NCBI GenBank assembly: GCA_038204425.1
Contig: JBBRCZ010000013.1
Span: forward strand, 1 to 64,000
Direction of reading: 5' to 3'
From: Spirochaetia bacterium
GTDB taxonomy: Bacteria > Spirochaetota > Spirochaetia > DSM-27196 > Salinispiraceae
Length of the DNA stretch: 64,000 nucleotides
Each line of letters starts with the position of its first letter. The first letter of the stretch is position 1. Under the pieces are notes generated by a model. That model was not told the origin of the DNA and ran no database searches. It worked only from the letters and a program-made list of their open reading frames with translations. The translations under genes and the position numbers were made by a program. This document shows, one piece after another, positions 46,848 to 62,090 of this stretch.

Positions 46848-47718
46848 ATGAAAAAACTTAGAGCCATGTTTTTGCTGCTGGCACTGATTTTCTTGGCTAT
46901 TGGGCCACTTGTTGCAGATGAGGGATCTGTTCCTGCCCAGTTTGATTGGACATGGTATGCTCGTATAAAATCTGGTCCCGCATTGGCTTACCTGAGCTCA
47001 GGGGAACTGCAGATGAAGGCCCGCTACAACCAAGAGGGGCGCTTGGTTGAGTTTTGGACCAACTCAGAGGATCTGACCTACAGCGAACGTTTTGATTACT
47101 ACAGCGATGGTAAATTGCAACGTCATAGCCTATGAGCCTTTTTCTCTTCCATCAGTGATCGATGCTAAGGGCAATGCCAGCTTTGCCGAGCCGGTTGGTG
47201 ATACCTTGGTTCTAAGTCAAGTTTTTGATACCAATGGTCGCATGATAGAAAAGTCGCTTTCCGAAAAACTTCCCAGTGCAAAGTTAGTAGCGTATTGGAA
47301 AGTAAGCTACAGTTACGACAAAGACGGTCGACGCATCAAGGTAACTATCTTTATGGCTGCTGACAAAGAAACTAACAGCCCCGAGCGCAACTTGAGCTTA
47401 AATTACACCCACAAGTTTAATACTGGCGGAAGCATAAGTGCTATTTCTGTCAAAAAATCAGCTAGCAATGCTGAGATCTATCTTGACGACTGGTCAATGA
47501 CCGGCGTGAGCATTCGCTATGAAACCGGCGCCGCCATCGGCCCTAGCACAAGCACCACGGCAAGTTCAATGATAGGTGCCAAGGCAAAAGTGTTATGGAA
47601 TGGCACATGGTACGATGCCACTGTTATTGAACAAAAAAATGCCACCTACAAAATCAGATACGACGGCTATGACGCAAGTTGGGACGAATGGGTAGAAAGT
47701 GAGCGAATCACTTTTTAG
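46848..47718 (+). pseudogene. Exported protein with YD-like repeats and C-terminal Tudor-knot/chromo-barrel domain, split by a +1 frameshift
   Basis: The signal-peptide ORF (46848-47135) and downstream ORF (to 47718) join in frame if one C at about 47130 is removed (RHS-YEPF). C-terminus WNGTWYDATV...IRYDGYDASWDEWVESERI. Confidence 0.7.
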
Positions 47719-51191: not shown

Positions 51192-52277
51192 ATGAGCAAG
51201 CTTAGAGTAGGAATTTTGGGCGCAACTGGCATGGTTGGGCAGCGTTTTGTAGTGCTTTTGCAACAGCACGCATTTTTTGAGCTAACCTGCTTGGCTGCCA
51301 GCTCCCAGTCTGCCGGCAAGACCTACAGCCAAGCCTTGGCCGGGCGTTGGGCCATGAGTTCTCCAGTTCCAGAAACCGTGGCTTCGCTTGTAGTCTACAA
51401 TGCGGCCAACATCGCTGAGATTGCTGCTCAAGTGGACTTGGTTTTTTGCGCGGTTGATATGAGTAAAGAAGAAACTCTTGCCTTGGAAGAAGCCTATGCT
51501 CGGGCCGAAGTGCCCGTTGTTTCCAACAATTCGGCCGCACGAGGCTTAGATGACGTGCCTATGCTCATCCCTGAGATTAATGCTGGCCACAGTCAAGTAA
51601 TTGACAGCCAACGCAAGCGTCTGGGCAGCAAACGTGGTTTTATAGCCGTCAAACCAAACTGTTCAATCCAGAGTTATGTGCCAGCACTCGAAGCTCTGCG
51701 GGGATTTGGACTCAAAGAAGTATCTGTTTGCACCTATCAGGCGATTTCGGGCGCTGGCAAAACATTTGAAACATGGCCCGAGATGATAGACAATGTAATC
51801 CCATTTATAAAAGGCGAAGAAGAAAAGTCAGAACTGGAACCACTCAAAATTTGGGGTGTTGTAAAGGATGGCAAAATAGTAAATGCACAAAGGCCGCTAA
51901 TCAGTGCCCAGTGTATCCGCGTAAGTGCACTTGACGGGCATTTGGCTGCAGTTTCGGTTCGTTTTGACAAAAAGCCGAGTCGCGAGCAAATAATTGATGC
52001 TTGGCAATCCTTTAAAGGTCCAGCGGGCACTGTTGACTTGCCGCTCGCCCCGAGGCAGTTTATCAATTATTTTGAGCAAGACAATCGACCGCAAACAAAG
52101 TTGGATCGTGATTTAGAAGGCGGCATGGCCATCAGTGTTGGCCGCTTGCGGCAGGACAGCATTTTTGATTACAAGTTTGTCTGTTTGTCACACAATACGG
52201 TCCGGGGAGCGGCTGGTGGTGCCGTGCTTATGGCTGAGCTGCTCTACACGCAGGGTTACTTGAGTTTGGCCAAATAG
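51192..52277 (+). CDS. asd: Aspartate-semialdehyde dehydrogenase
   Basis: GILGATGMVGQ, KPNCS catalytic Cys, TYQAISGAG, HNTVRGAAGG. Confidence 0.97.
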   Translation: MSKLRVGILGATGMVGQRFVVLLQQHAFFELTCLAASSQSAGKTYSQALAGRWAMSSPVPETVASLVVYNAANIAEIAAQVDLVFCAVDMSKEETLALEEAYARAEVPVVSNNSAARGLDDVPMLIPEINAGHSQVIDSQRKRLGSKRGFIAVKPNCSIQSYVPALEALRGFGLKEVSVCTYQAISGAGKTFETWPEMIDNVIPFIKGEEEKSELEPLKIWGVVKDGKIVNAQRPLISAQCIRVSALDGHLAAVSVRFDKKPSREQIIDAWQSFKGPAGTVDLPLAPRQFINYFEQDNRPQTKLDRDLEGGMAISVGRLRQDSIFDYKFVCLSHNTVRGAAGGAVLMAELLYTQGYLSLAK

Positions 52278-54373
52278 TAGCGTGGTGCCTTGTCGTTTGG
52301 ACAGTCGCGACTGAGCTTTTCTAAGACAGTCTTGGCCTGAGCCGTTTGATTGTGCAGGTAGTGGTCTATGGCGCGCTCAAAATCTCGCCGCCCGCGTCTT
52401 TTTTGATGCCATAACTCGCGGCTATCACCATCAAAAAAGTCGTAGATCTTAAAAACCTCGTCCGAGCTATACATCGTAAATTCACCCAAAAATCTTTGCT
52501 GAAAGTCTTCGACGTTTTTGATATGTCTAAGAGTTTGCTCGCTTGCTATTATGTGGCCGCCAAGTGGCCGAGTAAGAGCTTGCATGCGATTGGCAAGTCC
52601 AACTGCTTCGGAAATGATACTGCTTGCCAGATTGCTAAGCTCGCCAATGATGCCAAGCAGCATTGGCCCATGATGCAGCCCGATGCCTAGCTCGAGTGCT
52701 TCTCGGCCCAAGAGCTTTTGTTCTTGATTGATGGTGTCAAACTTGCGTATTAGTTCGATGGCGGCCTCTAACGCTTGACGAGCGTTGCCAGGAAAAAGCG
52801 CCATAAAACCGTCACCAGTAAACTTTTCTGTAAAGCCATGGTGTTTGCGTACAATTGGTCCACTGTACTCCATAAATCGGTTAATAAGGGTAAAGACAGC
52901 TTCGGGTGCCAGGTCTTTGCTAAAGCGAGAAAAATTCTTGATGTCGGCAATCAAAATAGTCCAACTTTGACTACTGTGATCTCCGAGGGAGATTTGACTT
53001 ATGCTCTGGCGTTTGAGAAAGCGTCCAAAGTCTTTAGGGACAAAGCGCAACATAGCTGAGTTGACTTTTTGCAACTGTGCACTGAGTCGCTCGGCTTTGC
53101 TCGCCATCGCAAAATTGCTTTTGGAAATCAGCAAGGCTTGAAAAAAAACAAAAACTATCATGCCATATTTGGCCAAATAGGGGCTGGAGAGCGAGTAGTG
53201 GGGCTTAAGGATGTCATGAATAGTGCAGGCGACAACAATCAGCAGGCCAAAGAAAAATAGCCCAGCGTTCTCCTGTTTTTGGACCATAGAAACAATCAAA
53301 ACAAGAATCATCACCAGACAAACGGCCAGGCTGTAAACTTGAAACCACACTAATAAAGCAGTATAGATCGCCGGTGGAAAGATGATGATGATAACGCTAT
53401 AAGCCAAACAAACGACCACATTGACGGCGTTAATCAAAGTATTGGTTTGATGCGGAAAAATGGTCAAAATAAAACGAACAAAGAGCATAAGCAAGGCAGT
53501 GTAGCTTAAGTAGGAAATCCAAAAAACTGCCCAAGCCGGAAAATCTTTCCACAATATATTGATAAAGACATCGTCAGTTGCCAGGATACGCAAAGCCAGA
53601 GACAGGCAAATAAGCCCAAACCAAAGTGGCGAACGATTGCTGGTTCTGAAGAAGAAAAGAAAAAAGTGATAAACAGCCATAATCGAATAGATGCCAAACA
53701 GGAGAAAACAGACAGCAATGCTCAGGTGCCAGCGCGCATCCATTGTCTCACGTGAGCCAAGTTCCGGCGCGCCACTTAGACCGGTGGTTATGTCGTCAAA
53801 GTTAGATACGTTAAGCACGATAAAATTGCTACCAGCCTGTAAGTTGAGGGCAATCAGCTCGGTTTGCCAAGACATGCGGTGCTGACTTGGGTTCTTTCCG
53901 ATGTGCCCAAACTTGGCAACAAGGATTCCATTGCAATATAGATCGCCGGCCGTACCAATTTGTGGCAGATAAAAAGACAGTTTGGGCACATCTGCTGCAA
54001 GATCAAGACGCATGATATAAGTGCCATAACCGAAGACAGGATTATCAAGGCCACGCTCTGGATCAAACCAAACCATGCCAGGCTTAAGTGCGACAGCGGA
54101 CTGCCTTACTTGTTCAAGATTCGCCGGGCTGAGCGCATCTGCTTCCATCCACTTTCCGCCGACAAAGGCCCAATCGCCGTCAAGTCTCACAACTGATCCA
54201 TAGGCTGCATGCCACTTGCTAAGGTCAACCACCCCAAGCTTGGTCCCCTCGTCGCCGCTAGTGCTTGTGCCAACAGTGCGGTTACTAGTGGCGGATGCTG
54301 GTTTGGGCAATGCCAAGAGTGCAGTAGAACTTAGAAAAAAAACGAGCAGTCCCAAACCGATACGTGAGCGCAT
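52256..54373 (-). CDS. 7TM-DISM class III adenylate/guanylate cyclase
   Basis: Signal peptide, beta-sandwich sensor (LDGDWAF, GYGTY), about 7 TM helices, IADIKNFS, KFTGDGFMALF, GIGLHHG. Confidence 0.88.
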   Translation of the reverse strand: MRSRIGLGLLVFFLSSTALLALPKPASATSNRTVGTSTSGDEGTKLGVVDLSKWHAAYGSVVRLDGDWAFVGGKWMEADALSPANLEQVRQSAVALKPGMVWFDPERGLDNPVFGYGTYIMRLDLAADVPKLSFYLPQIGTAGDLYCNGILVAKFGHIGKNPSQHRMSWQTELIALNLQAGSNFIVLNVSNFDDITTGLSGAPELGSRETMDARWHLSIAVCFLLFGIYSIMAVYHFFLFFFRTSNRSPLWFGLICLSLALRILATDDVFINILWKDFPAWAVFWISYLSYTALLMLFVRFILTIFPHQTNTLINAVNVVVCLAYSVIIIIFPPAIYTALLVWFQVYSLAVCLVMILVLIVSMVQKQENAGLFFFGLLIVVACTIHDILKPHYSLSSPYLAKYGMIVFVFFQALLISKSNFAMASKAERLSAQLQKVNSAMLRFVPKDFGRFLKRQSISQISLGDHSSQSWTILIADIKNFSRFSKDLAPEAVFTLINRFMEYSGPIVRKHHGFTEKFTGDGFMALFPGNARQALEAAIELIRKFDTINQEQKLLGREALELGIGLHHGPMLLGIIGELSNLASSIISEAVGLANRMQALTRPLGGHIIASEQTLRHIKNVEDFQQRFLGEFTMYSSDEVFKIYDFFDGDSRELWHQKRRGRRDFERAIDHYLHNQTAQAKTVLEKLSRDCPNDKAPRYYLAKLK

Positions 54374-54375
54374 GT

Positions 54376-55533
54376 TTACCCCAGTCGTGATTGTAGTATG
54401 GAGCCAAGTTGCTCGGGTCCAATACCTTGGTCCTCTCCCAAGCACCAACCTTTGGCAGCGATGCGCGATACTACCTGATCAACCGCACTTTGGTCGAGCT
54501 TATAGTCGCTCAGGCGAGTACCCAGTCCAAGAGATTCAAAAAATAAGACGGTTCGGCCAATTGCCTCATCCATCAGGACTTCTTCGTCGCCTTGGTCTAG
54601 GCCCCACACATTCTTTGCAAACATAAGTAGCTTGGCCGATTTTTGCTTTTTGCGCACACTGAGAACTCCAGGCAAGACCACTGCCAAGCTACGGGCATGA
54701 TCGAGGCCATATAATGCAGTCAGTTCGTGCCCAATCGCATGAGTAGCCCAGTCTTGTTTGACGCCGACACCAATGATGCTGCTGAGCGCTACGGTACTGG
54801 CCCACATTAAGTTGGCTCGCAGCTGGTAGTCATGGGGTGCAGCAAAAACTCTGGGACCATAGTGGACGAGTGTCTTGAGAATGCCTTCAGCAAAACGGTC
54901 TTGAACTGGTGTGTTTTCGTCACTAGTCAAGTACTGCTCACAGACATGAACAAAAGTGTCTACAATACCGTTGGCGCTCTGGCGATCAGGCAAGCTGTAG
55001 CTTGTCTCAGGGTCAAGAATCGAGAAAACAGGGTAGAGTTTCTGACTAGAGAAGCCCAATTTGTCGGGGATTTCTGAGCGACTAATAACGGCGTTGGTGT
55101 TCATCTCGCTTCCAGCGGCTGGCACGGTCAAGACGGTTGCGATTGGCAAGGCAGTTTGAATCAGACTTGCATCTTTGACCAAGTCCCATGGGTCAAGATT
55201 TGGTTGGCTGACTGCAGCAGCTACCAGTTTGGCAGCATCTATTACGCTACCTCCACCCACAGCGAGTATAAAATCAACATTATTTTCTATAAAGGCATCG
55301 CGTGCTTTGAGGCAGTCACGGTATTCTGGATTGGCGCCGATTCCGCCAAACTCGCAGACTATGCGCTGGCCAAGTGCATCAAGACACTGTTGATAGACCC
55401 CATTGGCTTTTATGCTTCCGCGGCCAAAGAGCAGACCAAGACGAACGTGCTGCGGAACCAAATTAGCGAGCTTTTTTATGCTACCCTTACCAAAAATAAC
55501 TTTTACGGGATTGTAATATTCAAAATCTAGCAT
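54376..55533 (-). CDS. Iron-containing NADPH-dependent alcohol/aldehyde dehydrogenase (YqhD/Bdh-like)
   Basis: YYNPVKVIFGKG, AVGGGSVIDAAK, PAAGSEMN, DWATHAIGHEL, DHARSLA. Confidence 0.95.
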   Translation of the reverse strand: MLDFEYYNPVKVIFGKGSIKKLANLVPQHVRLGLLFGRGSIKANGVYQQCLDALGQRIVCEFGGIGANPEYRDCLKARDAFIENNVDFILAVGGGSVIDAAKLVAAAVSQPNLDPWDLVKDASLIQTALPIATVLTVPAAGSEMNTNAVISRSEIPDKLGFSSQKLYPVFSILDPETSYSLPDRQSANGIVDTFVHVCEQYLTSDENTPVQDRFAEGILKTLVHYGPRVFAAPHDYQLRANLMWASTVALSSIIGVGVKQDWATHAIGHELTALYGLDHARSLAVVLPGVLSVRKKQKSAKLLMFAKNVWGLDQGDEEVLMDEAIGRTVLFFESLGLGTRLSDYKLDQSAVDQVVSRIAAKGWCLGEDQGIGPEQLGSILQSRLG

Positions 55534-55551
55534 GATACTGTTGATTATATC

Positions 55552-56835
55552 ATGTCTTCCTCTGAGCGTTTTGTACTTGACAAATATTTGCGACCAAATC
55601 GAACTTTTTTTTACACCATAATGATATTTGTTATGGCTGGTCTCTTTGCAGGTTTGGCTTGGGACGTCCAACTTGGACTGCTTTCAATCATAATTCTCGA
55701 TCTTGTTGGACTGTTTCTTTTTTTGACCATTGTAGTTTTGTTGTTTCGCGGTAAGCTTGCCCCCAATATAGCCATGTTGATGGTATGGATAACAGTGCTT
55801 CTGATGTTCTATTTGAGTTTTATTTTTTTAAACATAGCTGGTCCCAATAACGATCGAGTACTGATCGAAATGATTAAGAATATTTTTATGACTGCAATTC
55901 TTGGATCGTTAGTAGGGCTTGTAGTCGATCGACGTGGGGCTTTGGTTTTTTTGGCAACTGGACTTGCGTTTATGCTTGCATGTTTGTTTTTTTTGCAGCA
56001 AAGCCGTACGGAGATTCCCAAACTCATTCTCTTGAGTTTGATTTTGTCTGGCACATTGCTGATCGTATTTTATTATCGCTATACACTTGAGGGACTTCTG
56101 CTCAATTTTGGTAAAACTATTGTTGAGACTGCTCGCTACAAAGACCGCGTAGAGGTTAACAATGAGCAAAACCGACCCTTCGTCTACTTTGGCCATAATT
56201 CAGTCGGACTTATTATTGATTTTCGCGAGGACGTAGGTCGATTGACAGGCCTAAACAAGAACCTAGATCGGGAGGCAGATGGCTTCACCAATGCTGCCAT
56301 TTTAAAAGAAATGTCGACCTATATTAAGTCACTCACTCATCGCATAGACTTGGTCACCTACCTGACTAGCTCCAACGCACAAAGGAAGGCTGAGGCGCTT
56401 GATTTTGGACTCTTGCTTGAAGCCGTAGTTTATCCTTTTTTAATCGACCCTGAGTATAGGTCTTGGCTTAGAATAGTCTATTCGATTAGGGCAAGACCCT
56501 TAAGCTGGGATACACGCTACGGGTGGATCCGGCTGTTTGAGTACATTTTTAGATCCGCAATCCAAAAAACAGCGGCCGCTAGCGATAGTCTAAGTGAATA
56601 TCAAATCCGCTTGTACTTAATGCAAGAAGACCAAAACATAGAACTTGAGCTTCGAGAATCCCGACCAATTCTGCTTCCCGATGTAAACAAAGGTGGCGAC
56701 GAAGTAGAAACTTTTTTTGGGCCGCTGCGCAGTTTGCTTTCTGCGATGTCAGCCCGCTGTGAGCTTCTTTTGACAACAGACACAGGGTCTTGTGTTTTGC
56801 GTATAGCTGTGCCAGTTAAGGAACGACTATCATGA
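55552..56835 (+). CDS. Multi-TM degenerate histidine kinase homologue (pseudokinase)
   Basis: About 6 TM helices. Collinear similarity to the next gene, but the H-box reads GLIIDFR, the N-box FEYIFRSA and G1 LRESRP. Confidence 0.75.
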   Translation: MSSSERFVLDKYLRPNRTFFYTIMIFVMAGLFAGLAWDVQLGLLSIIILDLVGLFLFLTIVVLLFRGKLAPNIAMLMVWITVLLMFYLSFIFLNIAGPNNDRVLIEMIKNIFMTAILGSLVGLVVDRRGALVFLATGLAFMLACLFFLQQSRTEIPKLILLSLILSGTLLIVFYYRYTLEGLLLNFGKTIVETARYKDRVEVNNEQNRPFVYFGHNSVGLIIDFREDVGRLTGLNKNLDREADGFTNAAILKEMSTYIKSLTHRIDLVTYLTSSNAQRKAEALDFGLLLEAVVYPFLIDPEYRSWLRIVYSIRARPLSWDTRYGWIRLFEYIFRSAIQKTAAASDSLSEYQIRLYLMQEDQNIELELRESRPILLPDVNKGGDEVETFFGPLRSLLSAMSARCELLLTTDTGSCVLRIAVPVKERLS

Positions 56836-58199
56836 TGCCAAAGCCCTTACGACGTGTGGCAGATCAAGACCAGCTCTTGCCCACAAAACCCTGGCTCTTG
56901 CTCTACTTGAGCTTCCTTTTTGTAGCATTCTTCTTTGGTTTTGGCTCAGGTGAGTTTAGATCATCAATGGTCCTGGTGTCTAACAATGCCGTCAGCATAA
57001 CTGCCTTTTTGCTATTAAGCTTCTTGGGTCTACGCGGTGAGATGAGCTCTTCTCACTCACTTTCATTGATCTTGCTTGAAGCAAGTCGCAATGTCCTATT
57101 TCAGTTTGTAGCTGTGATCTTCTTTTTTCCAGTTTCGCCGGACAATGAGTTTTTCTTTTACATGGTAATACTCATGCTCTCAATGTTTGGCATTATAATG
57201 GGCATCGCTGTATCGGCTTGGATGGGTCTTCTTATTGGTGTTTTGGGCATTCTGGTGCAAGTAACAGTAATCTTTTTTAGGCCTGATCTGCTAGATTTCC
57301 GTGGTGCATTTGTGCAAAACTCAATTTTTATTTGTGGACCAATTTTAGTGGTCTACTATTTCAGATCCTTTATTCAACGTGTTTTTAGTTTGCGCTCTAA
57401 ATCACTAAAAAATATGCAAATACTAAAGGGCCGTGCTGAAGCATGGGAGCAGGAGAATAAGCCGTATCTCCTTTTTGGCAAAAATGCAGCGGGTTTGGTT
57501 CACGATTTTCGCAACTACGTTAACGTGCTTTCGATAAACGTGCAGACGCTTTCAATTGGTATCCAACGTGGTCGCAACCTAGACCCGCAGGCAGTTGGCG
57601 ACATCGCTAGCAAGTTGTCAGAACTAGAGGAGCGAATCCGTCTCGTCAGTTTTTTAGCTGCAAGTACTAAACTGAGTGAAGAAAATGAGAAGCTGTCGAT
57701 CTTGGATCTGCTTGAGGCAGTAGTATACTCGTTTAAAGTCGCTCCCGAGTATCGACATTGGGTTGGGTTCAGCACCGATGTAGAAAAGGGGCTTTACGCG
57801 TTTGCTCCGCGTCAAGTTTTGATGCGTATAGTTGAAAACCTTGTTCGCAATAGCTGCGAGGCAATAATTGCAGACCTACAAGGCGAGGACCCCACACCGC
57901 CGATTAGTCCGCTGGGATCTATTAGTGTATCCGCTCGGCAACAGGACAACCGTGTTGTAATTGAAGTAAAAGATAACGGCCCCGGTGTAACCCAGTGTCA
58001 TGATTGTGGTCATGAGCATGACTGTACCGATTGCAATTGTTTTGCTATTGGTAAGACGAGCAAAAAAAATGGTTCCGGCTTTGGTATGGTAAATGTGTTT
58101 CAAAACGTCCGGGCCTTGAGTGGCAAGGTTCTTTTGGAAACAGAACTAGAAAAAGGAACACGCATCATGGTTGCCTTGCCATGTTTGATTAAGGAGTAA
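56832..58199 (+). CDS. Multi-TM sensor histidine kinase with Cys/His-rich ATP-lid insert
   Basis: About 6 TM helices, GLVHDFRN H-box, ENLVRNSCEA, KDNGPG, CHDCGHEHDCTDCNCF, GSGFGM. Confidence 0.88.
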   Translation: MMPKPLRRVADQDQLLPTKPWLLLYLSFLFVAFFFGFGSGEFRSSMVLVSNNAVSITAFLLLSFLGLRGEMSSSHSLSLILLEASRNVLFQFVAVIFFFPVSPDNEFFFYMVILMLSMFGIIMGIAVSAWMGLLIGVLGILVQVTVIFFRPDLLDFRGAFVQNSIFICGPILVVYYFRSFIQRVFSLRSKSLKNMQILKGRAEAWEQENKPYLLFGKNAAGLVHDFRNYVNVLSINVQTLSIGIQRGRNLDPQAVGDIASKLSELEERIRLVSFLAASTKLSEENEKLSILDLLEAVVYSFKVAPEYRHWVGFSTDVEKGLYAFAPRQVLMRIVENLVRNSCEAIIADLQGEDPTPPISPLGSISVSARQQDNRVVIEVKDNGPGVTQCHDCGHEHDCTDCNCFAIGKTSKKNGSGFGMVNVFQNVRALSGKVLLETELEKGTRIMVALPCLIKE

Positions 58200-58206
58200 G
58201 TGCACC

Positions 58207-58839
58207 ATGATTACGACATCACAGACAAAAAAGAAACTGCTTCTATCCGCACTTGGTATGCTTGCCCTTTGTTTGGCGCCCTACAGCCTGATAGCACAAG
58301 AGCACAAGGTTGAGAGCTACCGTGCCAACGGCGTCCACATAACTGAGGGCTGGATAAGCGCAGAAACCTGGAGTGATAAAGCTCGAAAGATCTTGGCTGA
58401 CTATTCAAAGTATCGCCAGTGGGGACTTCGTTACATGGACGGCAAGGACCAGCATTCTGCCAAATTTTGGGCGCATTTTACCGATTTTGACTACAAATCT
58501 CCCGACTACATGCATGTTATTTTTGATCTTAAACTTGGCTTTCCCTTTGGTGCAAAAGACGCCAAAGCTATCTTTAAGATAGACCATCAAAGAGAGTCAC
58601 AGGGGATCTTTAGATTCGTCTTAGAACGGCCTCCGATTGGTATCAATAATGCGCTCTTGGATTTACGGGTCAAAAAAGGATCACAAGGAAGAGCGGATCA
58701 GTTAGTCTTTAGGCTTGAGATCAAATTCTGGAGCGCGATAGAAGCGATGATGGACTTCAAAATTTTTGACAGAGATATGATTTGGCGTGTGCAACGTATG
58801 CAGGAGAACCTGCGCGACTACGTTGAAGGAAAACTGTGA
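58207..58839 (+). CDS. Hypothetical exported protein
   Basis: Signal peptide and AAGGAG SD. The alpha/beta pattern loosely suggests a START/SRPBCC fold. Confidence 0.65.
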   Translation: MITTSQTKKKLLLSALGMLALCLAPYSLIAQEHKVESYRANGVHITEGWISAETWSDKARKILADYSKYRQWGLRYMDGKDQHSAKFWAHFTDFDYKSPDYMHVIFDLKLGFPFGAKDAKAIFKIDHQRESQGIFRFVLERPPIGINNALLDLRVKKGSQGRADQLVFRLEIKFWSAIEAMMDFKIFDRDMIWRVQRMQENLRDYVEGKL

Positions 58840-59807
58840 CATTCTTTGGCAGTGCCACCAAAGCAGCTTTGTTGCTGTTTTGTATAGCCTTAACGTGCCA
58901 ATCCTGTGGCCCAGCCAAGTCAGACCAGGGCGAGCAAGCGCTCGCATCAGCAGCCAAGTACACCATGAGAGACGATCAAGGTCAAAGCTTTTCTTTTGAC
59001 GTTTTTCCACACAGGATAGTTAGTCTTTGCCTTTTTGTGGATGAAATCCTGCTGGACTTGGTCGACAAGCAGAGCATTTTAAGTCTTACAGCTTTGTCCT
59101 TGGACGCCAACATTTCCAACATTGCCGACTCATCGCGCGGCATAGAGCATCATCTTGGACTCAACGTTGAGGCTTTGTTGTTATACAAACCAGACTTGAT
59201 TCTTGTGGCTGAATGGAGCGAGAAGGACAAAGTAGACCAGTTGAGATTGCTTGGTTTGCCAGTTTTTAGCGTAAGTACTCCACGAAATTTTGAAGAATTA
59301 CGTCGCCTAATAGATCAACTTGCTCTATTGACCGGGGCGCACAAACGATCTGTACAAGTTAAAGCCGCAATAAAAACGCGTTTAGAGCGCATCCAGGCTA
59401 GCCTTAATCAACGTGGCCTAGCCAATACCGTAAGTGCAATGGACTACACACCTTGGTCAAGTGGATTTGGAAGAGGAAGCTCTTGGTCCGAGCTTCTAAA
59501 CAAAGCCGGCATAAAAAATGCCTTACAGGCTTTTCCAGTCGATTCAATTGGGCAGGTAAGTCTTTCTAAAGAAATGCTCTTGCAGCTCGACCCTGACCTC
59601 TTGATTATTCCGGGCTGGGTTTATGGTGATGCCCAAGCTGCCAAGGTTTTTCTCGCCCAGATAGTAAATGATCCAAGTTTGGCGGGGCTTAAGGCGCTTA
59701 AGAACCAACGACTAATTCAGATGCCAGAACGCCTTAAATCAGCGGCCTCACAGTTTATGGTAGATGCTGTTGAGTTTCTCGTCGCTCATGCCTATCCAGA
59801 AAACTAA
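58836..59807 (+). CDS. Cobalamin/iron-chelate ABC transporter substrate-binding lipoprotein
   Basis: Lipobox-like CQSC, PHRIVSL, EALLLYKPDLIL, EMLLQLDPDLLI. Confidence 0.9.
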   Translation: MTFFGSATKAALLLFCIALTCQSCGPAKSDQGEQALASAAKYTMRDDQGQSFSFDVFPHRIVSLCLFVDEILLDLVDKQSILSLTALSLDANISNIADSSRGIEHHLGLNVEALLLYKPDLILVAEWSEKDKVDQLRLLGLPVFSVSTPRNFEELRRLIDQLALLTGAHKRSVQVKAAIKTRLERIQASLNQRGLANTVSAMDYTPWSSGFGRGSSWSELLNKAGIKNALQAFPVDSIGQVSLSKEMLLQLDPDLLIIPGWVYGDAQAAKVFLAQIVNDPSLAGLKALKNQRLIQMPERLKSAASQFMVDAVEFLVAHAYPEN

Positions 59808-59829
59808 GCGCTTGTTACAATAGAGCAGC

Positions 59830-60864
59830 ATGCGCTTTAGACTTCTTCTTTCTTTACTGATTATTATTTTGATAGGTCTGAGCATAGCCTCTTTAGTTTT
59901 GGGCACCTTTCCCTTAAGTCCAACAGACATAGTCAACGCCTTTCTCGTGCAAACTGGCCTCAATGACAGCACTTGGTTGCAAAACAACGACCATATCAAA
60001 AACGCCGTCGCCATAATTTTTTACATTCGTCTGCCTCGGTTATTTGCCGCGCTTGGAGCAGGCTGGGCCTTGGCGCTTGCTGGGACGGTCATGCAGGGGC
60101 TGCTGAGAAATCCTCTGGCAGGACCTGAGATCTTGGGGGTATCTGCAGGTGCCAGTCTGGGAGCAGTCCTGGCAATCGCTTTGGGGATGAGCGCTGTTTG
60201 GGAGGGATCCCTGGCCTCAATGGCAGTTATTGGCTCTCTAGTGACAGGATTTGCGATTTTTTCTGTCGGTGCCAAGGCGCAGCGCGGCAGTCTCTACACT
60301 ATTATTTTAGCCGGCATGGCAATTTCCAGCCTTGTAAATGGAGCCGTTTCTGCGGTGCTGCTCTTTTCAAAAGAGTACGAAGTCAATCAGTTTGTGTTTT
60401 GGACTATGGGCGGCTTAGAGGGCAGGCAATGGTTTCATATTGTGTGGGCCTTTCCCTTAATTGCCTTGTCTAGTTTGGTCTTTTTTGCCTCAGCCAAAAC
60501 CCTCAATCTCTTGCTGCTGGGCGAAGATCAGGCTCATGCCTCAGGACTATCGATTGCCACAAACAAGTTAGTGCTACTGAGCACCACGGCAATTTGCACG
60601 GCTATGGCTATTGTTTTGGCAGGGCCGATAGGGTTCATCGGCCTTTTGGTTCCGCACTTTTTTCGCATGATTGTTGGCTCCGATCACAAAAAACTTTTGC
60701 CACTAACCGCCTTAGGTGGCGCCGCTTTTTTGACCTTTGCGGACCTGATAGGCAGAACATTGTTTTCGCCTCTAGAGATTAAGGCGGGCATCATAACCGC
60801 AATGATTGGCAGTCCCTTCTTTTTAATCTTAGTTTTTAAAAACCGCGCCAGGTCGGGCCTTTGA
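59830..60864 (+). CDS. FecCD/BtuC-family ABC permease
   Basis: IRLPR, QGLLRNPLAGPEILGVSAGA, GPIGFIGLLVPH, GSPFF. Confidence 0.95.
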   Translation: MRFRLLLSLLIIILIGLSIASLVLGTFPLSPTDIVNAFLVQTGLNDSTWLQNNDHIKNAVAIIFYIRLPRLFAALGAGWALALAGTVMQGLLRNPLAGPEILGVSAGASLGAVLAIALGMSAVWEGSLASMAVIGSLVTGFAIFSVGAKAQRGSLYTIILAGMAISSLVNGAVSAVLLFSKEYEVNQFVFWTMGGLEGRQWFHIVWAFPLIALSSLVFFASAKTLNLLLLGEDQAHASGLSIATNKLVLLSTTAICTAMAIVLAGPIGFIGLLVPHFFRMIVGSDHKKLLPLTALGGAAFLTFADLIGRTLFSPLEIKAGIITAMIGSPFFLILVFKNRARSGL

Positions 60865-62090
60865 AGACTCTCGTGTCAGCAAGCAAGTTGAGCTATACTA
60901 TAAATGGTAGGACTATAGTCAGGGACCTCGATATTTCGCTTCATACAGGTGAGCTCGTCGGCCTAATAGGCCCAAATGGCGCTGGAAAAAGCACTGTCCT
61001 AAAACTGCTTTTGGGCCTTATAAAGCCAAGCACAGGAACGGTTCTTTATGAACAAAAACCTCTGACCATTCTTAGTGACAAGCAACGTGCTCAAAGTCTG
61101 GCTTGGTGTGCTCAAGAACACAACCTTAGTCTGACCTGTACCGTCGACCAAATTCTAGAAATGGGACGCTATCCGCATCTTGGACGCTGGGACAGTTTAA
61201 CCATGCACGACAAGCAAATACTGCGACAAGTAAAAAGTTTTGTTGGTCTGGACGACTGGACCAACGCAGATGTCAGTACACTCTCGGCTGGCGAGCGACA
61301 AATCCTAATGTTTGCACGGGCTTTGGTTCAAGACACCCAGTGTTTACTTTTGGACGAACCAAGTTCCAACCTCGACATGGGGACAGAGCATAAACTCTTT
61401 GCCATGATCACTGAGCTTCGACGAGAAGGCAAAGGGATCGTTGCGGCAATCCACAATCTCAACACGGCGGCCGAGTACTGCGACCGTTTGATTTTGATGT
61501 ACCAAGGCTCGTTAGTAGCTGAGGGTACGCCAGCTAAGGTTTTGAGTGAAGAGAACCTACGACGTTACTACGGCATAGAAGTTAAGGTGCAGCTCAACCA
61601 AGTGACTGGCAGCACCTCAATTGTGCATATTCCAAAGCACGTAAAGAACCAAGGCAAACGAGTGCATCTGATTGGTGGGGCAGGCAGCGCTTTGGCCTTA
61701 ACGCGACTTTTAGTGCAAGCCGGTTACCAACTGAGCGCTGGTGTAGCACACGAGTACGACAGTGACGCGCAACTTTGGCACAACCTTCAGATAGAAATGG
61801 TAAAGGTTGCCGCATTCTCGCACATCGACGACTCTTCTTTTGCACAGGCTCACACACTGATGGCTCAGGCCGACTGGGTTGTGCTATGCGCGTTTCCAAT
61901 TGGACCATCCAACCGGCGCAACCTTGTTCTTGCAGCCCAGGCGCGGCGCTTGTTAATTGTCGAAGAAGAGCCAGGCTTTGAGAGGTTTTTTGGGGACCAA
62001 GCAATCAAAAACCAGTTTGACACCCTGGCGCATAAATCGCCAGTTTTGACCAAGAATGCAGTCCTCGCGCATTTAGCCCAGAATGACTGA
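60861..62090 (+). CDS. Cobalamin/iron-chelate ABC ATPase with C-terminal extension
   Basis: GPNGAGKST, LSAGERQ, LLLDEP, HNLN, plus about 150 extra aa (VHLIGGAGS...SAGVAHEYDSD). Confidence 0.92.
   Translation: MKTLVSASKLSYTINGRTIVRDLDISLHTGELVGLIGPNGAGKSTVLKLLLGLIKPSTGTVLYEQKPLTILSDKQRAQSLAWCAQEHNLSLTCTVDQILEMGRYPHLGRWDSLTMHDKQILRQVKSFVGLDDWTNADVSTLSAGERQILMFARALVQDTQCLLLDEPSSNLDMGTEHKLFAMITELRREGKGIVAAIHNLNTAAEYCDRLILMYQGSLVAEGTPAKVLSEENLRRYYGIEVKVQLNQVTGSTSIVHIPKHVKNQGKRVHLIGGAGSALALTRLLVQAGYQLSAGVAHEYDSDAQLWHNLQIEMVKVAAFSHIDDSSFAQAHTLMAQADWVVLCAFPIGPSNRRNLVLAAQARRLLIVEEEPGFERFFGDQAIKNQFDTLAHKSPVLTKNAVLAHLAQND

Follow-up and report, generated by a model that had tools for sequence, protein, structure and literature searches.

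The textbook histidine kinase is a homodimer, and few heterodimers have been studied (FasBC, RetS-GacS, ChrS-HrrS). In group A Streptococcus, FasB and FasC are encoded by tandem genes and formed heterodimers, not homodimers, in a two-hybrid test, and one of the subunits is proposed to be a sensing pseudokinase (PMC12675982). In RetS-GacS of Pseudomonas aeruginosa, a heterodimer of two kinases, formed between their dimerisation and histidine phosphotransfer (DHp) domains, controls the autophosphorylation of one of them (PMC8498467). RocA, which modulates the live membrane kinase CovS, is a pseudokinase that putatively crosses the membrane with six helices; its ATP domain is degenerate and its His can be dispensed with (PMC7028121). 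DivL of Caulobacter is a kinase-fold protein with a dispensable ATPase domain and phospho-site that controls another kinase, CckA (PMC9491836; PDB 4q20). Here we analysed a stretch of 64,000 nucleotides from a Spirochaetia bacterium (GenBank assembly GCA_038204425.1, contig JBBRCZ010000013.1, positions 1 to 64,000 of the forward strand; hereafter the window). Two overlapping plus-strand genes in it are predicted to encode a six-helix membrane pseudo-histidine kinase (gene 1, 55552..56835; protein P0001, 427 amino acids) and its paralogue, an intact orphan six-helix membrane histidine kinase (gene 2, 56832..58199; P0002, 455 amino acids). Judged from the sequences, this dead-plus-live pair is real and conserved, and its family is undescribed in the literature that we searched. 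The arrangement is rare and has few studied precedents.

Architecture of the two gene products

Both open reading frames (ORFs) are unbroken and share a four-nucleotide ATGA overlap at 56832-56835. An AAGGA ribosome-binding-like site lies at 56818-56822, 9 nt 5' of the gene 2 start; together, site and stop/start overlap (56818..56835, +) suggest that translation of the two genes is coupled. BLASTP aligned the two proteins with 25% identity over 308 columns (E=5e-24). The phmmer alignment spans residues 12-340, so the likeness, which an earlier note on this DNA had described for the cytoplasmic part, includes the membrane part as well. A hydropathy scan at the chosen threshold detected six membrane segments in gene 1 and five in gene 2. 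The structure models of both proteins have six membrane-length helices, which bears out the approximately six-helix topology proposed in that note for two ATGA-overlapping genes, and in both these are accompanied by a linker helix, a hairpin of the DHp type and the fold of an ATP-binding domain (mean predicted local distance difference test score, pLDDT, 85.9 for gene 1 and 86.4 for gene 2). The best fold matches of both models were histidine kinases. Contigs from sequencing runs X2 and X3, which belong to two studies, span almost all of both genes with zero differing letters in the long pieces, and short pieces of runs X4 and X5, which cover small shares, agree with the DNA of the pair. The catalytic residues missing from gene 1 are therefore not assembly errors.

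In gene 1, Ile222 (56215..56217) aligns with His224 of gene 2, the predicted phospho-acceptor (57501..57503). The N box reads FEYIFRSA in gene 1 versus VENLVRNS in gene 2, ESRP (56656..56667) stands in place of the G1 sequence DNGPG, and the F and G2 boxes are absent. The loss of the phospho-His, the N-box Asn residues, G1 and G2 from a full-length gene had been noticed before, and the F box can now be added to it. The Asn four residues after the phospho-His is required for phosphatase activity in histidine kinases; gene 1 has Glu226 at this position. His215 was considered as a substitute phospho-site and rejected, as six relatives have Gln or Arg there. A Pfam scan of gene 1 gave nothing above the curated cut-off (best E 0.058) and an NCBIfam scan gave no match at E<=0.01. 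No PAS domain was found by the Pfam scan or in the model, and no receiver domain by the Pfam scan, in the model or in the receiver search of the genome. The C-terminal domain of the model resembles kinase ATP-binding domains (best Z 14.1, root-mean-square deviation (rmsd) 3.1, 137 residues aligned) and the top Foldseek and VIA matches of the model were histidine kinases; the alignment from which it was built contains live kinases, which may bias it towards the kinase fold. Together, sequence and model identify gene 1 as a predicted pseudo-histidine kinase that has kept the DHp and the ATP-domain fold and lost its catalytic residues, most of which its relatives have lost too.

The H box of class I histidine kinases has the form H-D/E-x-x-N/T. 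Gene 2 has H224-D-F-R-N, with the predicted phospho-His in a DHp helix, and this His is nearly invariant across 34 aligned family members. All of the ATP-binding boxes, N (ENLVRN), G1 (DNGPG), F and G2 (GSGFG), are present at 57834..58085, and the model superimposes on 4q20 with Z 19.2 and rmsd 2.1 over 142 aligned residues. In the profile scan suggested in the earlier note, HATPase_c (PF02518) matched gene 2 at E=1.2e-11 and did not reach the cut-off in gene 1, and HisKA (PF00512), which matched 8 of the 34 members at E<=0.05, did not match P0002. These results suggest that gene 2 encodes an intact histidine kinase.

Between G1 and F, gene 2 also carries four cysteines, C389-x2-C392-x5-C398-x2-C401 (Cys4; 57996..58034, +), a candidate metal or redox site and the sole match to this pattern in the host genome. 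Neither this motif nor the divergent membrane residues described below figured in the earlier note. The count covered 67 family rows (76 minus 5 outgroup rows, 2 fragments and 2 near-copies), of which 56 are catalytically intact; 37 of these have four Cys at the site, one has five and 13 have none, the rows being related by descent and not independent. Cys4 is wholly absent from all seven members of the dead clade to which gene 1 belongs, and a separate degenerate lineage (P0022, P0023, L011) retains all four Cys. The spacing suggests a Zn or Fe-S site, and its location beside the ATP pocket may provide a metal or redox input to the kinase. Zn was included in the heterodimer model job described below, and no contacts to it were returned. 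Literature searches, with thin coverage of subscription papers, found no described Cys4 loop in a kinase ATP domain. A further subfamily (L085:5463-6842, L086:5904-7184 and eight related loci) is without Cys4 and has an unusual G1 box, the Asp of which is replaced by His or Trp (for example EHxG); its His, N and G2 boxes are intact.

Relatives of the degenerate copy and of the kinase

A phmmer search of 1.84 billion representatives returned 29 matches; word-index homologue searches were nearly blind, P0001 retrieving only itself and alignment A2 two proteins. The three best matches after the query, and three more, were dead or partly dead relatives of gene 1, all six known from short contigs only. 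The position of Ile222 is occupied by Met in P0008, Gln in P0009, Glu in P0010, Gln in P0011 and Arg in P0013; the fragment P0017 keeps the His and has a degenerate ATP site. With gene 1 included, the His is thus absent in six of seven, and the second N-box Asn and G2 in all seven. The loss is graded, with the His kept in P0017, part of G1 kept in P0013 and P0011, and ESRP invariant in the three members of the closer dead clade (P0001, P0008, P0009). Six dead-clade frames are full-length (416-427 amino acids), with 23-31% identity to P0001. The earlier note had named orthologues with His, N and G boxes, or absent or decaying ones, as evidence against its proposal; at the protein level those found are degenerate at these boxes and conserved.

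In a 72-row tree, the seven dead sequences formed a clade (SH-like approximate likelihood-ratio test, SH-aLRT, 97) within a 14-row clade that also holds two kinase groups. This tree omits P0027, P0033, P0034 and L059, which are fragments or near-copies, and, earlier, P0026. A 29-row tree built without the ATP-binding domain and two H-box columns recovered the dead clade with support of 94/91, its two halves with 100/99 and 95/93, and the kinases around P0002 with 100/100. The branching is mirrored, P0001 lying outside (P0008,P0009) and P0002 outside (P0004,P0003,P0020). Forcing P0001 and P0002 to be sisters cost 83 log units (approximately unbiased test, p-AU 4.4e-8), and a recent duplication giving rise to the two was rejected at this value.

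Regional conservation was compared between the dead trio P0001, P0008 and P0009 and the kinase trio P0002, P0003 and P0004. The DHp helices (amino acids 208-275 of gene 1; 56173..56376) are the most conserved region of gene 1, with 44-54% identity in the dead trio versus 47-67% in the kinase trio. The membrane parts are comparable (23-30% versus 22-32%), whereas the C-terminal half of the ATP domain is at 17-32% in the dead trio and 36-58% in the kinase trio. On these identities, selection maintains the regions for membrane insertion and pairing and lets the ATP pocket diverge, except for the new invariant ESRP. The dead clade also has invariant DHp residues of its own (Tyr212, Ser217, Val218, Arg230 and Met254). 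Collectively, these comparisons indicate that the dead copy is old and conserved, not a recent relic, and the six relatives, the 94/91 clade and the rejection of a recent duplication support the earlier proposal of a duplicated, then specialised pair whose dead copy is kept by selection. Single-copy, pre-duplication kinase relatives exist, one of them in the named species Spirochaeta lutea. Separately, an independent degenerate lineage (L080:5929-7194, L082:6154-7416 and protein P0023) has lost G2, has lost the His in two of three and has kept Cys4; it is the sole family member in genomes G017 and G032, followed in both by a related membrane protein of 300-340 amino acids.

The membrane domains of the dead and live copies diverged differently. 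The six-helix domain of gene 1 (amino acids 17-176; 55600..56079, +) keeps an Asp pair found in single-copy kinases of the family, which mostly have Asp at both positions 38 and 50 (gene 1 numbering). Both are kept in the three close dead copies; the pair is lost in all four close kinases, which have Asn at 50 and, except for P0004, no aligned Asp at 38. In helix 3, a Glu-x-x-(Arg)-Asn motif, E-x-x-R-N in gene 2, is present in 6/6 full-length kinases of the duplicated clade (with Arg in 5/6) and in 0/6 dead copies. The idea that only the dead copy retains the ancestral membrane domain was borne out only in part. Membrane-profile scores overlap (dead copies 24-71 bits, close kinases 12-27, second kinase group 39-53), and we therefore make no claim that one copy alone senses. 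Searches with the whole gene 1 model gave two fold leads, one to ImcA (Z 13.4, rmsd 3.9, 188 aligned) and the other to the anchors of adenylyl cyclases (AC5, 6r3q; Z 11.8, rmsd 3.8, 198 aligned), both near the helical-bundle background, and no Pfam membrane family common to these kinases and six-helix receptors was found. The same six-helix domain occurs in a conventional kinase at G000:C1:415614-417086 (L048), and also in L015 and L017 (E=1.5e-4 to 1.4e-6), beside receiver-domain genes. By these matches, the domain is a mobile sensor module in these spirochaetes.

Distribution and gene neighbourhood

Whole genomes were searched in overlapping sets of 40 relatives, 300 and 400 members of the class, 400 of the phylum and 98 of the order, and no further dead-clade members were found in any of them. 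In the order set, 30 genomes match the dead-copy profile, and eight of these have two or three matches, which lie on different contigs or far apart. Five of the seven other genomes of the host's family hold one intact kinase of this type and two hold none (93% and 57% complete). A scan of the genome collection gave two loci, each a single intact kinase of Salinispira, and scans of the JGI metagenomes gave 117 and 107 pattern matches, none of them confirmed. P0008 is the best relative of gene 1 and P0003 that of gene 2; for each, the only contig is a Logan contig with a length of 8,388 bp, and from the equal size of the two contigs a second dead-plus-live tandem is probable. At 2,515 bp, the contig of P0013 could not hold two complete genes of this kind.

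As the earlier note had observed, no response regulator adjoins the pair: the genome has 59 receiver-domain matches, all of them outside the window, and the nearest, at C13:69754, is about 11.5 kb downstream. The kinase family is orphan: a scan of L042 and of 16 stretches of 13-14 kb found a receiver domain at 1 of these 17 loci. Seventeen receiver proteins of the genome without a listed kinase domain within 4 kb are candidate targets. A recent transfer of the pair was not supported, its guanine-plus-cytosine contents of 42.4% and 44.4% lying at the 6.5th and 23rd percentiles of 1,301 long ORFs. Scans for promoters and terminators gave no more matches than chance would (8 versus 5.3 +/- 2.8 and 6 versus 4.2 +/- 1.9).

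The surroundings of the pair recur in part at other family loci. A 7TMR-DISM adenylate/guanylate cyclase gene lies at 52256-54373 (minus); relatives of it are directly divergent to a single-copy kinase in L077 and L078 and near a kinase in L075, and a functional link between cyclase and kinase is possible. A relative of the Fe-alcohol dehydrogenase lies near the kinase in L076. This partly common neighbourhood fits duplication in place. At the window locus, the divergent Fe-alcohol dehydrogenase gene starts at 55533 (minus), 18 bp from the gene 1 start, and the spacer (region 55531-55554) has a minus-strand TATAAT 10 nt before the dehydrogenase start and itself lies within a short inverted repeat that spans both start codons. 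With an 18-bp spacer, the promoters must overlap coding DNA or yield near-leaderless transcripts. Downstream, a third gene of the probable operon (58207..58839, +) encodes a protein of 210 amino acids with a hydrophobic N-terminus. It matched, at a score of 0.94, a cluster in which 48% of the members carry PF03364, a START/SRPBCC-like lead, had no Pfam match above cut-off, and is not common to the 16 other family loci. This downstream part of the probable operon (58207-62090) continues, via another 4-nt overlap, into a periplasmic-binding-protein ABC (ATP-binding cassette) transporter (PF01497; permease and ATPase judged from sequence). Elsewhere in the window, overlapping ORFs of 95 and 208 amino acids in different frames (46848-47718) encode a repeat-like region followed by a Tudor-knot match (E=1.9e-6) and may be one frameshifted gene.

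Possible partnership and comparison with known systems

The cytoplasmic parts of P0002 (178-455) and P0001 (176-427) were modelled together, with Zn. The heterodimer scored 0.53 and the best of three controls 0.00, which lends weak support; the runs agree in at least 87% of contacts, with a partner pLDDT of at least 77. A pass at a score of 0.60 or below was obtained for 18 of 157 solved complexes; of 215 mismatches 2 passed, both in this range. Since paralogues can pass through resemblance alone when dimers of their family have been solved, the score shifts the odds little. The coupling of the genes, the conservation of the DHp and this weak model point to gene 1 heterodimerising with gene 2 or modulating it. 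Contact of some form between gene 1 and the neighbouring kinase seems probable. That the pair forms one asymmetric heterodimeric receptor, FasBC-like with a fully dead subunit, is the reading that we tentatively prefer, at a little under an even chance.

The working of such a receptor, from expression and heterodimer formation through phosphorylation in cis and joint sensing to metal binding, signal and target, is inferred as follows. Long ago, an orphan membrane histidine kinase with six helices would have been duplicated in tandem, giving two co-expressed subunits. Gene 1 would contribute one membrane domain and half of the DHp four-helix bundle, and would neither bind ATP nor carry phosphate; gene 2 would contribute the only His and the only ATP site. 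As one subunit lacks both, the heterodimer could phosphorylate itself only in cis. A signal within the membrane would be read jointly by the two unlike membrane domains, setting the activity, Cys4 beside the ATP pocket might add a metal or redox input, and phosphate would pass from gene 2 to a response regulator encoded elsewhere. The fullest form of the proposal is an obligate, adenylyl-cyclase-like, twelve-helix pseudo-heterodimeric half-site kinase, in which a dead subunit with the ancestral Asp pair joins a catalytic subunit that acts in cis, has acquired a membrane motif and bears a Cys4 metal/redox switch; we consider it doubtful as a whole.

The DHp conservation and the heterodimer model would be seen equally if gene 1 were a dedicated inhibitor or rheostat, poisoning a trans-phosphorylating kinase homodimer by DHp-DHp heterodimers until, perhaps, a signal of its own frees the kinase. 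Phosphorylation in trans would be blocked by a subunit that has neither His nor ATP site, which is the mechanism described for RetS-GacS (PMC8498467), and the two membrane domains could read different signals. However, coupled upstream synthesis of a constitutive poison would waste kinase unless a signal freed it, and since the duplication the partner kinases have themselves changed in the membrane and DHp regions, as would be expected of co-adapted partners more than of a simple homodimer; such an inhibitor is in our estimate unlikely. Marginally less likely again is that gene 1 acts independently of gene 2, its homodimer serving as scaffold or sink for a response regulator or another kinase, the tandem reflecting origin and shared expression. 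DHp conservation suits homodimers or regulator binding equally well, the invariant DHp residues of the dead clade could form a new surface, and DivL and RocA act on non-neighbouring kinases (PMC9491836, PMC7028121). Against such independence, the overlap and coupling, the mirrored branching and the probable second tandem favour a kept partnership. Long branches, a strongly diverged ATP-binding domain and the failure to find the gene 1 type in the other complete or draft genomes searched would suit a decaying duplicate without function, but six full-length open frames at 23-31% identity, kinase-like DHp conservation, the new invariant ESRP and the rejection of a recent origin have already largely refuted decay; neutral DNA would not be expected to stay open across such divergence, and we regard this as very improbable.

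Several observations weigh against an asymmetric heterodimeric receptor. The tandem was observed directly in one genome only, and the search for it in other spirochaetes that the earlier note had called for came back empty: a dead-clade member or adjacent family copies occur in 0 of the 98 other genomes of the order, aside from 7 weak matches (<=70 bits). The second tandem relies on the matching contig sizes alone, and the contigs of P0011 (8,162 bp), P0005 (14,190) and P0020 (9,777) had no partner among the proteins looked up, where a partner may be represented by another cluster member. Genomes G017 and G032 carry a lone degenerate member and no second member of the family, and dead members can therefore persist alone, a point that also favours the independent scaffold. 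Gene 1 is without a clear ribosome-binding site and lies 18 bp from a divergent gene. The complex score, from a comparison of the heterodimer with three controls, may stem from likeness to solved kinase dimers, and FasC retains the His that gene 1 lacks.

If the proposal is true, an obligate pseudo-heterodimer would be a natural half-site kinase with a new wiring of metal or redox input into the catalytic domain. A natural pair with one fully dead half would allow a direct test of whether asymmetry and cis phosphorylation suffice for signalling, and of what a subunit without His adds. The family offers graded catalytic loss beside its single-copy, pre-duplication relatives, including that of Spirochaeta lutea, and the Cys4 loop is a separate lead, testable on the soluble domain. 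The uncultured host and the small number of sequences set limits to such work.

The suggestion that the system is undescribed stands, in the literature searched, for the family and not for the principle, which is known from FasB/FasC, RocA-CovS, RetS-GacS and DivL-CckA. An Atlas look-up gave generic kinases only. Literature searches, again thin for subscription papers, returned nothing relevant on degenerate kinase paralogues of this sort or on Salinispira kinases, and in PMC8895600 Salinispira is mentioned in a figure legend only; a listing on LvrAB showed kinases under Rec control. The six short membrane helices with short loops of both genes are like those of CqsS/LqsS-type receptors, and the dimer interface of CqsS is a possible site for a lipophilic ligand (PMC4821796); mammalian adenylyl cyclases are pseudoheterodimers with unlike six-helix anchors (10.1101/694877). 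The fold leads, to ImcA and the cyclase anchors, have Z 11.8-13.4, a level that helical bundles reach by common arrangement. For Cys4, the disulfide of SrrB appears by analogy to be the nearest precedent: cysteines in its ATP-binding domain tune autokinase activity via one disulfide (PMC12189002), whereas the kinases here have four in a CxxC-x4-6-CxxC loop resembling a metal site.

Unlike DivL, gene 1 has Ile222 at the phospho-site, has no PAS domain and adjoins its paralogue. DivL has a His-to-Tyr change and several PAS domains, and its gene is unlinked to CckA; RocA is not known to be a tandem paralogue of CovS. Where gene 1 has Ile222, RocA retains a His (PMC7028121). RetS and GacS are hybrid kinases with receiver domains, and RetS also dephosphorylates GacS, whereas the proteins here are plain adjacent paralogues (PMC8498467). 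None of FasB/FasC, RetS-GacS, RocA and DivL, as far as they are described in the papers cited, matches a tandem paralogue without both His and ATP site. The closest studied layout is that of FasB/FasC, in which two adjacent membrane sensor-kinase-like genes likewise share one locus. The Fas locus, in a different phylum, includes fasA, in contrast to the pair here with no regulator nearby, and FasC keeps an essential His246 and borrows the ATP domain of FasB, whereas gene 1 has neither His nor ATP site (PMC12675982).

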